Source: Candidatus Zixiibacteriota bacterium | GTDB taxonomy: Bacteria; Zixibacteria; MSB-5A5; GN15; JAAZOE01 | NCBI GenBank assembly: GCA_043819555.1 | Contig: JBDREQ010000021.1 | Coordinates: 1-64,000, forward strand | Length of the DNA: 64,000 nucleotides | Direction of reading: 5' to 3' | Shown here: one piece after another, positions 619-53,189 of the stretch | How the letters are laid out: each line of letters starts with the position of its first letter | Numbering within the stretch: position 1 is the stretch's first letter | Program-made: the position numbers and the translations under genes | Notes under the pieces: generated by a model | What the model was told of the DNA's origin: nothing | Seen by the model: the letters and a program-made list of their open reading frames with translations, nothing else | Databases searched by the model: none

Positions 619-1497
619 ATGACTTACGGCGCGCAAAATGATTACGGTAAAATAGAAAAGATACTCGTCAAGCATGTTCGTGATGCTTTTATCAATCAGG
701 AAAACATTGATAAGCAGTGGCAAAACCTCAATTATTATGAGCGGCCCAATTATGATAAATCACTGATTGAATACAATGCCCTTATTGAAAAGATCGCGTC
801 GGTCGGATGCGAAATTCACTATCTGCCACGAAACAGTGATGTTAGCATAGATTCGATTTATCCCCGCGACGCGGCCATTTCCACTTCTAAAGGCATAATT
901 TTATGCAACATGGGCAAGGCCGAACGAAGCGACGAACCTGAACTTCTAAAAGAATATTTCGGAAAAATAAGTGTCCCGATTTGGGGAAGTATCTCCGGTG
1001 ATGGCAGAGTCGAAGGCGGCGATATTATCTGGCTGGACGGCGATATCCTTGTCGTTGGGCGAGATTATCGAACCAACGATGAAGGCATTCGTCAGTTGAA
1101 GCAACTGCTAAATGGCATCGCCAAAGAAGTCATTGCGGTACCGCTCGTACATTGGGAAAGCCCCTCCGATGTATTTCATTTGATGTCGATAATCAGTCCG
1201 ATAGATAAAGACCTAACGTTGGTTTATCCCCGACTTCTTCCAGTTCCGTTTCGAGAACTGTTGATTAATAAAGGCATTCAATTAGTTGAGGTTCCTGACG
1301 AAGAATTCGAATCGATGGGATGCAATGTATTGGCGTTAGCGCCTCGCAAATGCCTCATGCTCGATGGTAATCCGATTACGAAAAAACGCCTTGAATCCGC
1401 CGGGGCGGAAGTTCTTACTTATTCCGGAAATGAAATCTCCCGCAAAGGCGCCGGCGGCCCGACCTGCATGACCCGCCCGTTCAAACGGCAGGGATAA
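619..1497 (+). CDS. amidinotransferase superfamily protein (dimethylarginine dimethylaminohydrolase/arginine deiminase-like)
   Basis: Motifs YPRD, VEGGD, RTN, FHL and the C-terminal GGPTCMTRP catalytic Cys. Confidence 0.85.
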   Translation: MTYGAQNDYGKIEKILVKHVRDAFINQENIDKQWQNLNYYERPNYDKSLIEYNALIEKIASVGCEIHYLPRNSDVSIDSIYPRDAAISTSKGIILCNMGKAERSDEPELLKEYFGKISVPIWGSISGDGRVEGGDIIWLDGDILVVGRDYRTNDEGIRQLKQLLNGIAKEVIAVPLVHWESPSDVFHLMSIISPIDKDLTLVYPRLLPVPFRELLINKGIQLVEVPDEEFESMGCNVLALAPRKCLMLDGNPITKKRLESAGAEVLTYSGNEISRKGAGGPTCMTRPFKRQG

Positions 1498-1498
1498 A

Positions 1499-3445
1499 TC
1501 AATCCTCCTCGTATCGCTTTTTGATGCGAGCCAAAATGTCCGGATCGGCCAGAGTCGTTGTGTCCCCCGCTATGCGCCCGGCAGCAATATCGCGCAATAA
1601 ACGGCGCATGATTTTGCCCGACCTGGTTTTGGGAAGCTCAGGAGCGTAAATAACTTTATCCGGTTTGGCAATGGCTCCGATTTTGCGAGCAACAAAATCC
1701 CGCAACTGTTCAATAGTTTTATCAGTAAATTCCTCACCGCCTCCCAATGTCACGAAGGCTGCCAGGCATTCGCCCTTGAGATCGTGTGGGATTCCGACAA
1801 CCGCCGCTTCGACAACTTTGGGGTGGGCAACGAGGGCCGATTCTACTTCCATCGTCGAAAGGCGATGACCGGCGGTGTTTATAACATCATCGATGCGGCC
1901 AAGTATCCAGAGATAACCATCTTTATCTATTTTGGCTCCATCGCCGGGAAAATAAACACCGGGCCATTTTGTCCAATAGACATCGATAAATCTTTTGCGG
2001 TCGCCCCAGATTCCATTAAGCATCCCCGGCCACGGTTTGGTAATCGCCAGGTAACCGCCGCCCTGTTTTATTTCTTTGCCGTTTTCATCGAGGATTTTGG
2101 CCTCAATACCGGGAAAAGCCTGGGTTGCCGAACCGGGCTTGGTTTTGGTAATCCCCGGAAGAGGCGTAATCATGATATGTCCGGTTTCGGTTTGCCACCA
2201 GGTATCAACAATCGGACATTTTCCGCCGCCGATATGTTTGTGATACCACATCCACGCTTCAGGATTTATCGGTTCGCCGACTGTCCCAAGTAATCGCAAT
2301 GAACTCAAGTCATGTTCGGCGGGCAATTTTTCCCCCCACTTCATAAAGGCTCGGATGGCGGTGGGAGCGGTATAAAACACATTGACGCCATAATCTTCGA
2401 CGATTTGCCAGAAACGGTTTTTGTCCGGCCAGTCGGGGCTTCCTTCATACATCACCTGAGTGGCGCCGTTGGCGGTGGGACCATAGACAAGATACGAATG
2501 ACCCGTTACCCAGCCAACATCGGCGGTGCACCAGAAGACATCATCTTCCTTCAGGTCAAATACATATTTTGAAGTAGTGTAGACTCCGGTCAGATATCCT
2601 CCGCACGTATGAACAATTCCTTTTGGCTTACCGGTTGTCCCGGAAGTATAGAGAATAAATAAAGGATCGTTGCTGTCAACATAGACCGGCTGGCAATAAT
2701 TATCGGCTTCCTGCATTAATCGATGATACCAATGATCGCGTCCTTCTTTGATGCGCAAAAGAAAATCCCCTCGTTTGACGATGACAACATGCTCTATTGA
2801 CGGGCATTCGGCAATAGCCACATCGGCATCATGCTTAAGAGGTATTATTTGTCCGCGCCGCCAATCGCCATCAGCGGTTATAAGGAGTTTTGCTTCGGCG
2901 TCATTAATTCTATCGCGCAGTGATTCAGGGGAAAAGCCTCCAAAAACAACAGAATGAATGGCGCCAATGCGGGCACAGGCCAGACAAGCAACAACAAGTT
3001 CAGGTATCATCGGCAGATATATAGCGACCCGATCTCCCTTTTTTATTCCTAAAGATTTGAGGGCATTTCCAAATTTATTAACTAATCGATAAAGCTCAAA
3101 ATATGTCAAAGTTCTCCGATCGCCCGGTTCGCCTTCCCAGAAGAGAGCCGCTTTATTTTTTTGTCCGCTGGCGATATGCCGGTCGAGACAGGATTCGGTA
3201 ACATTGAGTTTTCCGCCAACAAACCAACGGGCATCGGGAGCTTTCCATTGAAGACCCCTTGTCCATTTTTTCTTCCAGATTAATTCACCGGCCATTTTTT
3301 CCCAAAAAGCGATCGAATTCTTCCTGGCCAAATTATAAATTTCCCTTTTTGCATTTGCGTTTTTTGAAAATTCTGATGATGGCCTAAAAATTCTTTTCTC
3401 GTCAAGCAATGTCTCAATAGCAATATTTTTTGATTTTCGCGGCAT
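1499..3445 (-). CDS. acs: acetyl-CoA synthetase (AMP-forming)
   Basis: Motifs [20 protein letters not shown] and [15 protein letters not shown]. Confidence 0.96.
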
Positions 3446-40556: not shown

Positions 40557-41783
40557 CTATTTTTCGACGTCAGCCGCAGTGAGTTTCATCGGTTCGTGAT
40601 GGCTCCCCTCCCACGGCGGAAAGATTTTTACAAGAATAAACAGAATAACAAACGGCATGAGTAATAGCACTATCGATACAAAGAGCCCCTCGAGGCCGAA
40701 CATTTCCAGTTTATAGGTGGTCAGGCCGCGCAGGCTTTTTGAAAACAGTTGACCGCCCAGAACAACATTCCAACGGGTGCTGAAGATGCCGACCTGAACC
40801 AAAATGGCGGCGATAAAATAGAGCATCCGCTTCATTTCATCGGGCACTTGTCTGAAACGAGCCATAACCAAAGCGCCCATAGGAGTCACGCTGCCGATAA
40901 TAATCTGGCTGATTATCAGACTGATAAAGAGCCGGTTCGTAATCATCGATGACAAGATATGTATCGACTCCTCAGATTCATAAAGCCGGTGAACAAAATC
41001 GAGAAGCTCCAGCGAAAAATCGACAATCATGGCAACAAGCAGGAATAATCCCAGCTTATTGAGACAATCCATATTGATGCGTTTCCAGCGGAACATGGTT
41101 GAGACCATGTAAATCAAGACCATGAGAGCAATACCGGAAACAATCGCTGAAAATAAAAATACAATCGGCATAAGAACGCTGCTCCACCACGGATTTGCTT
41201 TGACTGAGCCAAAAATAAACCCGACATAACCATGCAATAAAAACGCGGAGGGAATACCGATCAGGGTAATAAATCTTCCCGCTTTGGCATCGAAGGCCAG
41301 GGCTTCGTCGGAGGTACTGGTTGAACCGAGGCTTAACGCGTAGTAAAAATATTTTTTCAGGCCGGCGCTTTCTCTGGCCCATTTGATGATATCGCAGCGG
41401 TAATCAAACCAGATTTCCAAAAGCAGCACAACCATCAGATACCAGGCATAGACAAAACCGAACATGGCCATCGCCGATTGGGTGTGCGGCGTCAAAAACA
41501 TTTCCAGCGCGCGTTCGGGTCTTCCCAAATGCGCCAAAAGGGGCAAAGGAGCAATCAGAAGAAACGCCAACGCCGTTAATAATGACAAACGATAAACGGG
41601 AGTCAGAGCGCTAACCTTAAAAACTCTTTCCAGCGACGCCAGGATGAAGGCTCCTGCCACGAGTCCCGTGAGATAAGGATAAACAACAATGAGAATACCC
41701 CAATGGAGTTCAAATTCATTTGGATAAATATATCCGGTGGCGCCGGCAATAGCCGAAGCGGCATTGGCCAGAATATTCTCCAT
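40557..41783 (-). CDS. NrfD/PsrC family quinone-interacting membrane subunit
   Basis: WGILIVVYPYLTGLVAGAF, HLGRPER and many TM helices. Confidence 0.9.
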   Translation of the reverse strand: MENILANAASAIAGATGYIYPNEFELHWGILIVVYPYLTGLVAGAFILASLERVFKVSALTPVYRLSLLTALAFLLIAPLPLLAHLGRPERALEMFLTPHTQSAMAMFGFVYAWYLMVVLLLEIWFDYRCDIIKWARESAGLKKYFYYALSLGSTSTSDEALAFDAKAGRFITLIGIPSAFLLHGYVGFIFGSVKANPWWSSVLMPIVFLFSAIVSGIALMVLIYMVSTMFRWKRINMDCLNKLGLFLLVAMIVDFSLELLDFVHRLYESEESIHILSSMITNRLFISLIISQIIIGSVTPMGALVMARFRQVPDEMKRMLYFIAAILVQVGIFSTRWNVVLGGQLFSKSLRGLTTYKLEMFGLEGLFVSIVLLLMPFVILFILVKIFPPWEGSHHEPMKLTAADVEK

Positions 41784-41785
41784 GT

Positions 41786-42556
41786 TTATCTCACCTCTCC
41801 GTCGGCTCCGGAATAATATACTTTGGGTTTGGTATTAAGCCATTGCTTGAGGACATTGGTGTCGTTAAATCGTATAAATCGATGCAAGGGGCTATTGCGC
41901 TTGCCGATTTCACCAAATACTCGCGCCTGGGTTGGACAGACTTCCACACAGGCAGGCCGCAATCCTTTGACAATGCGATGGTAGCAGAATGTGCATTTGT
42001 CGGCGGTATGCGTATCCGGACGAAGGTATCGAGCTCCGTAAGGGCAAGCCTGGATGCAATAACGGCATCCGACGCAATATTCGTTATCAACCAGAACAAC
42101 ACCGTCACGGCTGGTATATGTCGCCCCGACCGGACAAACCTGAACGCATGGCGCGTTTTCGCAATGGTTGCATAATTTTGGAACGAAGTAGGTTCTGAGA
42201 ATTTCCTTTTTCTCATCCGCTTTTGGAAATCCGTCAATCCCTCCGTTAGGACTATCGACTTCGGCTTCCCCATCCGGCGGAATCATGTATCTTTCTACCC
42301 AGGTTCTAAAAAAATGTTCTTCGCGGGGTACTTTATTTTCGTTTTTGCAGGCGTCGGCACATCTTCCGCAACCGATACATTTATGAATGCTTATACCCAT
42401 GGCATAATTATGATCTTCGGGATTGTAGTCATCGGCAGCAGACGCCAAGAGTTGTTCGGGAGAAATTAAGTAGGCGGCCGAAACTAAAACCGGCAATTTT
42501 TTGAAGCAGGTACGCAAAAAATCCCGTCGTTGAATTTTAGGTTTTTCCCGTTCCAT
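41786..42556 (-). CDS. NrfC/DmsB-like 4x[4Fe-4S] protein with Tat signal
   Basis: QRRDFL, CIGCGRCADAC, CNHCENAPCVQVCP, CVGCRYCIQACP and KCTFC...CVEVCP. Confidence 0.92.
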   Translation of the reverse strand: MEREKPKIQRRDFLRTCFKKLPVLVSAAYLISPEQLLASAADDYNPEDHNYAMGISIHKCIGCGRCADACKNENKVPREEHFFRTWVERYMIPPDGEAEVDSPNGGIDGFPKADEKKEILRTYFVPKLCNHCENAPCVQVCPVGATYTSRDGVVLVDNEYCVGCRYCIQACPYGARYLRPDTHTADKCTFCYHRIVKGLRPACVEVCPTQARVFGEIGKRNSPLHRFIRFNDTNVLKQWLNTKPKVYYSGADGEVR

Positions 42557-43293
42557 TATCTGGCCTCCGGGTGATGTGGATAATGACAATCCCAGCAAAG
42601 ATAATTTTCACCGTGAGTCGCCAATTCAATTCGTGGTATCCCCCTCGAAACTTTAGCGTTGGTGTCATGACATTTTCCGCAAAGAGTCCTTGATGTCGGT
42701 TTTTGAGCCCGAGCATAACGGGGATTGTTCATGTGATCGGCCGGAACTTCATGGCAAGTTTTACATTCCAGGCTGGTATGATGGGAAACGGCTTTTTGGA
42801 GAGCAATTTCACGATGGCAGGCATCGCAAGCCTGTAACGTAGTTGCCAGAAGAGGATTATGCGGGTCATGGCATTCCATACATGGTTTTCCGGGATTATG
42901 AATATCTTCCATAACTTGGGGAAAACCTGAGGGGCGTGCAGAATTATATCCATGACAAATAGTACATTGATCCCGTTCCCGTGGAATTCGAGGTGTAACT
43001 TCATCCGGTTCTTCGGTATGAGCCATGGCCGGGCCATGGCATACTTCACAAGATACGTTACGATGGTCAGATTTCATTTTTGTCTCATAAATTTCATCAT
43101 GACAGTCATTACAGATTATGCTTCCCGCATAAACTACTTCAAGAGAGGCTATTTCATCGACTGATGCCGCTCGGTAATGTCCATAATCGCCGAATGTTTC
43201 CGGTACGAAAAAATGCCGGGCGGTAATTAAACCGCCAATTGCCACAATAAAAATTATTGCCAAAGGAATTATTTGCTGGGGAATTTTCTTCAT
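42556..43293 (-). CDS. membrane-anchored octaheme cytochrome c
   Basis: Eight CxxCH motifs (CNDCH, CEVCH, CTICH, CMECH, CDACH, CKTCH, CGKCH, CWDCH) and an N-terminal TM. TAATG overlap with the next gene. Confidence 0.92.
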   Translation of the reverse strand: MKKIPQQIIPLAIIFIVAIGGLITARHFFVPETFGDYGHYRAASVDEIASLEVVYAGSIICNDCHDEIYETKMKSDHRNVSCEVCHGPAMAHTEEPDEVTPRIPRERDQCTICHGYNSARPSGFPQVMEDIHNPGKPCMECHDPHNPLLATTLQACDACHREIALQKAVSHHTSLECKTCHEVPADHMNNPRYARAQKPTSRTLCGKCHDTNAKVSRGIPRIELATHGENYLCWDCHYPHHPEAR

Positions 43294-51676: not shown

Positions 51677-52114
51677 TTACGATGCGGCTCTAATTGCCGC
51701 CATCATCTTCTGATTTTCCGGCATGCCTTTTTCGGAGAATATAATTTTACGGTCAGGTCCAACGACATAAACCGAACGCTGAATCAGCAATCCCCCCATT
51801 TTGAGAGAGTCGTATCTTTTGGCTATTTTCTTATCCGGATCAGACAAAAGTATAAATCCAAATCCTTTTTTATCGCAATAATTATCGTGGGATTTAACAG
51901 AAGCAGGATTAATCCCAAAAATTTCCGCGTTTAGTTTTTCAAATATTTTTCGATCCGCCTCAAGGGCGGCTAATTGCCTGTTTCAGCCGGGCGTATTATT
52001 TTTCGGATAAAATACAAGAAGGACGAAGGCTTTTCCACTTGAACTCATCGTAAAACTGACACCACCTGAACCGTTGAGTTTGAAATCTGGCGCCTCATCG
52101 CCAACATTAAGCAT
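51677..52114 (-). CDS. selenocysteine-containing peroxiredoxin, BCP/PrxQ family (145 aa, Sec44; not in ORF track)
   Basis: Manual translation MLNVGDEAPDFKL...VFYPKNNTPG-TGA-NRQL...HDNYC...LLSDPD...QRSVYVV. TGA at 51983-51985 occupies the PxxxTxxC position. GAGGAGG RBS and a downstream hairpin. Confidence 0.88.
51955..51969 (-). promoter_or_regulatory. putative bacterial SECIS apical hairpin
   Basis: mRNA CCGCC-CUUGA-GGCGG, separated from the in-frame UGA by 13 nt, with a G in the loop. Confidence 0.65.
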
Positions 52115-52181
52115 TAGACTTCCTCCTCATTGAATATTAATCTTGAGATATTACGTCGCCCGAATAATTAAACGCCAAAAT

Positions 52182-52640
52182 TTATTTTAATTCCGCGAGG
52201 TTTTTAAATAATTCCTCTATATTCGGTTCTTCTTCCAAATCATGATGATCAATATATTTGATGATGCCTTCTCGATCGATAACCAATATCATTCGTTCGG
52301 TATAACCCATGTCGGTTAGGGCGCCGTACCTTTCGGCTACTTCCCCGTGAGGCCAAAAATCTGAAAGAAGAGGATAGTCAATCCCGCCCATAGAATATGC
52401 CCATGATTCATGGCTGGGAACTGAGTCGACCGAAATCGCCAGCACCTGTGCATTTAACGCCTCAAAACGCTTTAATTCTTCCTGATACCCAGGGATTTGA
52501 CCGCTGCATATCGGAGTCCAGTTTAACGGATAAAACGCGAGGACAACGTTTTTTTGTCCCCGGAAATCCGACAAAGTTATTTTTTTACCCAGATGCGATG
52601 GAAGCGTAAAATCAGGAGCCATTTCTCCTACTTTTAACAT
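52182..52640 (-). CDS. peroxiredoxin (AhpE-like, Cys-containing)
   Basis: [22 protein letters not shown] and TER. Confidence 0.92.
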
Positions 52641-52691: not shown

Positions 52692-53189
52692 TCAATCTTC
52701 TAATGGAGCCCCCTCACTAAAACCAAACCAGAAATGTCCACCAGATAAAGATTCACGTTCCGCCTTCAAAGATTCATAATGCCTGAATTCTTCATCGGCC
52801 ATGCCATCGCAAAGCCTTTTAATTTCTTCGTTGGGAGCGTTGGCTGATCCGCTTTTATAATAATTAGTCGCGGCCAGTTCGGCTTCGATAGCCATATCGA
52901 TATATTGCATTTCCGTTAAATTCTCGTTTTCGCGATGTTCGGCAAAGAACTTAGACAATACACTGACACCTTCTTTTGGCAATTCACCTATTTTTTCGCC
53001 ATAAATATCGGCAAACATTTTAATAAGCAAAGCCTCATGATTTAATTCATCCTGTGCCAGATTATTCAGTTTTCGCTTGGCGTCCGGATTGGTGGCTTTA
53101 GCCGACAGAAACTTATAAAATTTCTGGCCATCAATTTCGGCTACGATTGCCTGCTTAATTACATCTTTTGATAGTGCGTCGGATGACAT
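52692..53189 (-). CDS. rubrerythrin/ferritin-like diiron protein
   Basis: AE...FY...DELNH and AE...YY...DEEFRH pairs. Confidence 0.85.
   Translation of the reverse strand: MSSDALSKDVIKQAIVAEIDGQKFYKFLSAKATNPDAKRKLNNLAQDELNHEALLIKMFADIYGEKIGELPKEGVSVLSKFFAEHRENENLTEMQYIDMAIEAELAATNYYKSGSANAPNEEIKRLCDGMADEEFRHYESLKAERESLSGGHFWFGFSEGAPLED

Follow-up and report, generated by a model that had tools for sequence, protein, structure and literature searches.

The window analysed here, a 64,000-nucleotide stretch of contig JBDREQ010000021.1 from a Candidatus Zixiibacteriota bacterium (assembly GCA_043819555.1, 3.35 Mb, 97% complete), carries on its minus strand, between nadA and a cysteine-containing peroxiredoxin gene, an open frame of 145 residues ending in TAA (Table 1). 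The only internal stop in this frame is a TGA at residue 44, in the context FYPKNNTPG-U, which corresponds to the peroxidatic site of a peroxiredoxin. The protein contains the superfamily motif PxxxT/SxxC(U), completed by Pro37 and U44, together with the conserved Arg, and both Thr41 and Arg113 are invariant in the 40 rows aligned; the motif definition follows PMC8945050 and PMC3322552, and the family definitions used below are drawn from the same two sources and bioRxiv 10.1101/2019.12.26.888669. The sequence-only reading had proposed a 146-codon hidden gene at this place with a strong ribosome-binding site, a single TGA at the active site, a lone cysteine at residue 80, 36 residues beyond the TGA, and the hairpin CCGCC-CUUGA-GGCGG thirteen nt after it, and it was right on each of these points. 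It had also expected standard gene callers to miss or split the gene, which is borne out: without read-through, the table-11 ORF list has no gene of at least 60 aa on the minus strand at 51677-52114, and 16 of 20 protein-database relatives are only 80-101 residues long, the three inspected starting downstream of site 44, while two full-length database entries show Trp at position 44. Elsewhere in the window, three kinds of protein can be told by eye from their motifs in a minus-strand run (40557-43293): a multiheme cytochrome c, one with 4Fe-4S and an NrfD-like membrane protein.

Table 1. Features of the locus and related sites (window positions unless another genome is named)
Feature	Position	Strand	Basis or remark
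Probable Sec-containing PrxQ/BCP-type peroxiredoxin gene (P0001)	51677..52114	-	145 aa + TAA; Pfam AhpC-TSA, 101.7 bits
Active-site motif P37-K-N-N-T41-P-G-U44	51983..52006	-	In-frame TGA at 51985-51983
Ribosome-binding site AGGAGG	52122..52127	-	7 nt upstream of ATG; from sequence
Putative SECIS hairpin, 5-bp G-C stem, CUUGA loop	51954..51969	-	Fold and conservation; stem-loop-stem 51969-51955
Cys80 codon TGC, predicted helix-3 resolving cysteine	51875..51877	-	Ungapped alignment with XcPrxQ C84
Arg113 codon, conserved peroxiredoxin catalytic Arg	51776..51778	-	Invariant in 40/40 aligned sequences
AhpE-like peroxiredoxin, upstream neighbour	52182..52640	-	Pfam AhpC-TSA; Cys here, Sec in some relatives
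Rubrerythrin-domain protein, upstream neighbour	52692..53189	-	Pfam PF02915
Near-consensus sigma-70 promoter TTGACG-17-TATAAT	51661-51633	-	11/12 consensus match only; just past the stop
Same-genus damaged copy (L029, G001)	1438-1797		25-residue in-frame deletion removes motif and TGA; hairpin damaged
Probable exported selenoprotein (one of L210-L212, G000)	C15:21015	-	UxxC motif
Probable exported selenoprotein (one of L210-L212, G000)	C76:53747	-	UxxC motif
Probable exported selenoprotein (one of L210-L212, G000)	C31:90246	+	UxxC motif

Clear orthologues (E 3e-27 or better) were found in 12 of the 60 related genomes searched: 8 of the 13 from the same family, 4 of the 21 from another and none of the 26 from two further families; the closest named database relatives were mostly Candidatus Zixiibacteriota, with some 'uncultured Ignavibacteriales'. 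Our table of 46 loci comprises the window, these 12 orthologues, another 12 loci from genomes and the best 21 from metagenomes; it omits six named duplicate records, one contig-end fragment and all hits below about 36% identity, and a few near-duplicates remain in it. The codon at site 44 is TGA in 42 loci, TGC or TGT in three and deleted in one, and relatives as distant as 37% identity still have the TGA, the frame being intact on either side of it; these counts overstate the support because the loci and rows are related. Among the 150 best profile matches in a wider library, 141 have Cys at site 44, and hence both the UGA orthologues and the Cys counterparts that one would look for at residue 44 were found. 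The place of the TGA, exactly at the catalytic site, and its retention in nearly all relatives make a reading as selenocysteine very likely.

The genome encodes the machinery for such a reading. Genes selA and selB, over their curated cut-offs, adjoin each other on contig C33, selD, itself with one in-frame TGA, is on contig C63, and tRNA-Sec(UCA) is on contig C25, the latter two also over cut-off; a tRNA-Trp(CCA) is present as well. Thus all four components named in the sequence-only reading were found in a 97%-complete genome. The co-occurrence of the gene with selA was uninformative as a test, since 58 of the 61 genomes searched in the order have a selA match over cut-off. Both the genome with a Cys orthologue (G059) and the one with the deleted copy (G001) retain selA, selB and selD, which points to gene-level changes and not to a loss of the Sec trait. 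In G011, where the gene is absent and selA has no match, the presence of a TGA-containing selD and of a partial selB at a contig end means that no link between the absence of the gene and selA can be drawn.

We then considered the hairpin downstream of the UGA, the loop of which begins 18 nt after this codon. It is the minimum free energy fold, at -9.0 kcal/mol in a 41-nt segment and -7.7 kcal/mol alone; this energy by itself is within chance expectation (z -0.87 and -1.36). Conservation was assessed on 37 aligned DNA rows, 34 of them with TGA. The window shares the whole 16-nt hairpin block, without a single difference, with the 10 TGA orthologues nearest to it, which have 57-66% amino acid identity; as a group, these 11 sequences have a mean nucleotide identity of 65% (60-80%). 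The next-longest invariant run in this group is 5 nt, at the TGA itself, and the codons of invariant residues are frozen in four of five cases within the hairpin versus two of 40 outside it (the TGA and the Cys80 codon). This group was chosen by the motif, yet it equals all rows with at least 57% protein identity, the rest being at 53% or less. As judged from these alignments, the conservation of the hairpin, unlike its energy alone, is beyond chance. In the other 23 TGA rows, nine have a stem of 6-9 contiguous pairs, displaced by two from the window's register and closed by a GGA loop, two make seven pairs in the window's own register, and about seven have no clean stem in either register; the three Cys rows pair in neither.

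These data bear on the alternative that there is no selenoprotein, the TGA being either a true stop (in a pseudogene or through a sequencing error) or a codon for Cys or Trp. The damaged copy in a same-genus genome would agree with this alternative. Against it stand the recurrence of the same TGA across the 42 loci between intact frames, the use of TGA as the normal stop ending many of these genes, the presence of both tRNA-Trp(CCA) and tRNA-Sec(UCA), and synonymous sites that are frozen only in the hairpin. The absence of a selenoprotein is therefore already very unlikely on the comparative data, and we give it hardly any weight.

According to the bSECIS model, as set out in the legend to Figure 2 of PMC13188914, the stem should be of 4-16 bp, the loop of 3-9 nt, the UGA-to-loop distance of 16-37 nt and the energy -7.5 kcal/mol or lower, and the loop should have a G as its first or second nucleotide; by this review's own account, some bSECIS elements do not fit the model. 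The window hairpin agrees with the model in its stem (5 bp), loop (5 nt), spacing (18 nt) and energy (-7.7 kcal/mol), but its C-U-U-G-A loop contains no G at position one or two (one of four rules broken). Folding around a UUGA loop instead gives a weaker structure (-4.0), likewise without a G there. The selD gene of the same genome has a canonical GGC hairpin loop. Apart from selD and the PrxQ gene, three TGA genes in the genome whose products have dockerin/PKD or thioredoxin/TPR domains (L210-L212, Table 1) show stem-CGUGA-stem hairpins 18-23 nt after the UGA, a pattern that is a lead only, since it was drawn after seeing these genes. A hairpin screen of the whole genome returned 116 of 2,533 candidates as hits, a noisy result in which selD was missed, and a C-N-U-G-A screen, having been defined after its top four hits were seen, is not an independent test. 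Given the C-G-U-G-A loop in three probable selenoprotein genes of the same genome, it may be the 3' G-A of a C-K-U-G-A loop, and not a 5' G, that is recognised by the zixibacterial SelB. We put forward only tentatively, as somewhat doubtful, the combined proposal of a Sec-containing PrxQ with a helix-3 selenenylsulfide whose SECIS departs from the published consensus in its frozen C-U-U-G-A loop.

Sequence, tree and fold point to PrxQ/BCP as the probable subfamily of the protein, in agreement with the original assignment. Its best PDB sequence matches are the BCP/PrxQ proteins of Xanthomonas and Xylella (E 1e-20), and the alignment to Xanthomonas PrxQ is ungapped from residue 10 to past residue 100, with U44 on C48 and C80 on C84. 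In a tree of 115 rows, which is unrooted and has no curated references, the Sec family comes out as a single clade (support 99) whose sister group is the canonical PKDxTPGCTxEAC BCPs (support 90), with the AhpE-like and Prx1/Prx6 groups placed elsewhere; nested among its Sec members are two that have Cys44, which suggests a Sec-to-Cys reversion in these two. No NCBIfam model was over its cut-off for the 145-aa protein: the best match, bcp PRK09437, was below it, and PrxU NF040737 reached 33.5 bits against a cut-off of 270. The AlphaFold model of the Cys-read protein (pLDDT 97.3, pTM 0.92) has the thioredoxin-like fold of peroxiredoxins, with residue 44 opening helix 42-53 and Cys80 within helix 73-83. 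Foldseek ranked Bcp1 and XcPrxQ first, with a TM-score of 0.88 to Bcp1; since AhpE structures score as high as or above XcPrxQ (0.91-0.93 vs 0.76-0.86), the fold does not fix the subfamily. The PrxQ signature PKxxTPGCTxEAC is matched in its first half, and the second half reads U-N-R-Q-L-A here; the signature given for grape PrxQ in PMC4749874 likewise has Gln at +3.

Other peroxiredoxins carrying TGA came to light in these searches. A member of the same family has a Prx1/AhpC-type, PrxU-like peroxiredoxin with TGA at the peroxidatic site (L216 in G010, 719-1195, minus strand), and six records from Acidobacteriota or Myxococcota (L080, L086, L097, L099, L105, L110) fall on separate tree branches. 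Four proteins of 490-1,430 aa (P0103, P0115, P0159, P0111) have three to five tandem matches to the Sec-PrxQ profile.

The likeness to the PrxQ of Xanthomonas campestris (5IIZ, 5IOX, 3GKK; C48/C84) and Xylella fastidiosa (3IXR) extends to YPKxxTPG-C/U, the 36-residue spacing, the helix-3 segment S-H-D-N-[FY]-C-x-K-x-G-F and the conserved Arg. The window protein differs from them in having Sec for the peroxidatic Cys, in an identity of about 31%, and in the residues after the active site, N-R-Q-L instead of T-T-E-G. The nearest Cys homologues in a library clustered at 50% are CxxxxC helix-2 PrxQ proteins of the 'PGCTxQLC' type, several of whose cluster members are labelled 'peroxiredoxin Q/BCP' by JGI; they share Gln at +3 (134 of 150) as well as length and profile (E down to 1e-41). 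Whereas 96 of 140 of these homologues have Cys49, the Sec clade has Ala, Ser, Thr or Gly there, with Cys in one of 40 rows, a Cys44 outlier.

Next, we looked at Cys80 as a possible resolving cysteine. It was expected to occupy the helix-alpha3 position, and it does so: it lies at the position of XcPrxQ C84 with no second Cys in helix 2, as in helix-3 atypical 2-Cys enzymes, and some PDB entries of the Xanthomonas protein are titled as its C48S and C84S mutants. When the 150 best profile matches were reduced to 140 by removing 10 without Cys44 or coverage, 96 had only the helix-2 Cys (position 49), 15 only Cys80, 29 neither and none both (Fisher p 4e-9, overstated since the rows are related), a mutual exclusion that is expected if both are resolving cysteines. 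Since Cys80 is aligned with C84 and never co-occurs with a helix-2 Cys, a Sec44-Cys80 cycle is likely on these comparisons, and, given Sec at residue 44, homology gives us good confidence that Cys80 would act as the resolving residue. The idea that the SECIS forced the loss of the helix-2 Cys was rejected, because Cys homologues with C-N-R-Q-L and Cys80 (P0041, P0042, P0073) are already without it.

Cys80 is retained in all 11 of the closest sequences and in only 24 of the 41 readable TGA loci. The selenenylsulfide cycle proposed in the sequence-only reading is thus likely for a sub-branch, but it is optional within the clade and not a hallmark of the family. The 17 TGA loci without Cys80, most of them without any other conserved Cys, fit instead a 1-Sec peroxiredoxin, in which turnover would do without Cys80, because thioredoxin, a glutaredoxin-like protein or a small thiol would itself reduce the selenenic acid. 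There are precedents for this among Cys enzymes, as PMC4749874 places the resolving Cys of PrxQ in helix 3 in about 6%, in helix 2 in about 60% and nowhere in about a third, and PMC8945050 describes a 1-Cys BCP reduced directly by Trx or GSH/Grx. For the window protein, we nonetheless consider a 1-Sec mechanism unlikely, given that Cys80 is invariant in the closest sequences, stands at the C84 position and excludes a helix-2 Cys.

The gene is part of a recurrent order, namely gltX, (glnS), a rubrerythrin-domain gene, the AhpE-like peroxiredoxin gene, Sec-PrxQ and nadA. The rubrerythrin-domain gene is syntenic in 19 of 27 long related loci in addition to the window, and nadA, on the other flank, matches NCBIfam TIGR00550 over its cut-off. 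The neighbouring peroxiredoxin we take to be AhpE-like from its LSDFWPHG motif, alongside its separate tree branch. The sigma-70-like site, which overlaps a small inverted repeat, directly follows the PrxQ stop, and this consensus match suggests that nadA may have its own promoter. Tandem double Sec-Prx loci also occur (L022, L024-L027, L132-L134, L136, L137, L141, L149), in which the hairpin loop of the AhpE-like gene differs.

The AhpE-like gene precedes the PrxQ gene in 41 of the 46 loci and itself has TGA in 12 of the 40 readable ones, as would be expected if the two peroxiredoxins were paired as a heterodimer or relay, with one partner giving the resolving thiol. Loci whose PrxQ is without Cys80 mostly have a Cys in the 'P-C-H' motif of the partner, an observation made by eye and confounded by descent. 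However, in four genomes of the family the AhpE-like gene persists alone, a glnS-like gene splits the two in three loci, and the whole gltX-to-nadA block is syntenic, so that descent explains the adjacency. It looks like synteny rather than obligate coupling, and we regard a pairing of the two proteins as highly doubtful.

In the four genomes concerned (G004, G007, G008, G011), no Sec-PrxQ match was found between the AhpE-like gene and nadA, which lie on one contig. The damaged copy of G001, whose database entry (P0002) is a 'peroxiredoxin family protein' of 120 aa, could reflect decay or an assembly artefact. The absence from four family members and the active-site deletion in G001 imply, on this comparison of genomes, that the Sec-PrxQ gene is accessory and dispensable.

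With the selenenylsulfide cycle as the preferred reading, the gene would encode an intact 145-residue PrxQ/BCP-type peroxiredoxin in which UGA is decoded as Sec44 by means of the downstream hairpin and peroxide reduction involves Sec44 and Cys80, a reading to which we assign a probability of about 0.78. SelB would bind the hairpin and bring Sec-tRNA to the UGA; on the sequence comparisons, the decoding of this codon as Sec is almost certain. The Sec44 selenolate, held by Pro37, Thr41 and Arg113, would then reduce ROOH and become a selenenic acid, and local unfolding would allow the helix-3 Cys80 to make an intramolecular selenenylsulfide. Thioredoxin and thioredoxin reductase, genes for both of which are present in the genome over cut-off, would re-reduce it. 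The protein would be an accessory cytoplasmic antioxidant, closing the run of rubrerythrin, AhpE-like and PrxQ genes.

Selenocysteine-containing peroxiredoxins are an established group: Prx (PF00578, motif TxxU) is entered as an experimentally verified selenoprotein family in Table 1 of PMC13188914, and PMC1794560 reports 12 Sec-Prx members and five Cys-to-Sec events in the family. The window protein shares with this family PF00578, one Sec in PxxxTxxU, a UGA with a downstream hairpin, and Cys counterparts. Unlike the AhpC-size PrxU, it has the monomer size of the PrxQ/BCP type, and unlike the known Sec-Prx proteins it has a predicted helix-3 resolving Cys and a non-consensus CUUGA loop. Among the papers listed in literature searches, which took in few subscription journals, none was on a Sec-containing PrxQ with a helix-3 Cys. 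A real selenoprotein gene of a known kind is well supported here, with two twists, the optional helix-3 resolving Cys and the frozen non-consensus SECIS loop.

No concept is changed by this finding. It corrects the annotation of relatives that are stored as short pieces or with Trp at the active site, and enlarges by one the selenoprotein set of an uncultured lineage already rich in Sec. The frozen non-consensus hairpin provides a test case for bacterial SECIS models. As a small monomer-type scaffold with natural Sec/Cys variants and variants with or without Cys80, the family would be a convenient comparison system for the contribution of Sec to peroxiredoxin catalysis, and for the question of whether Sec makes the resolving Cys unneeded.
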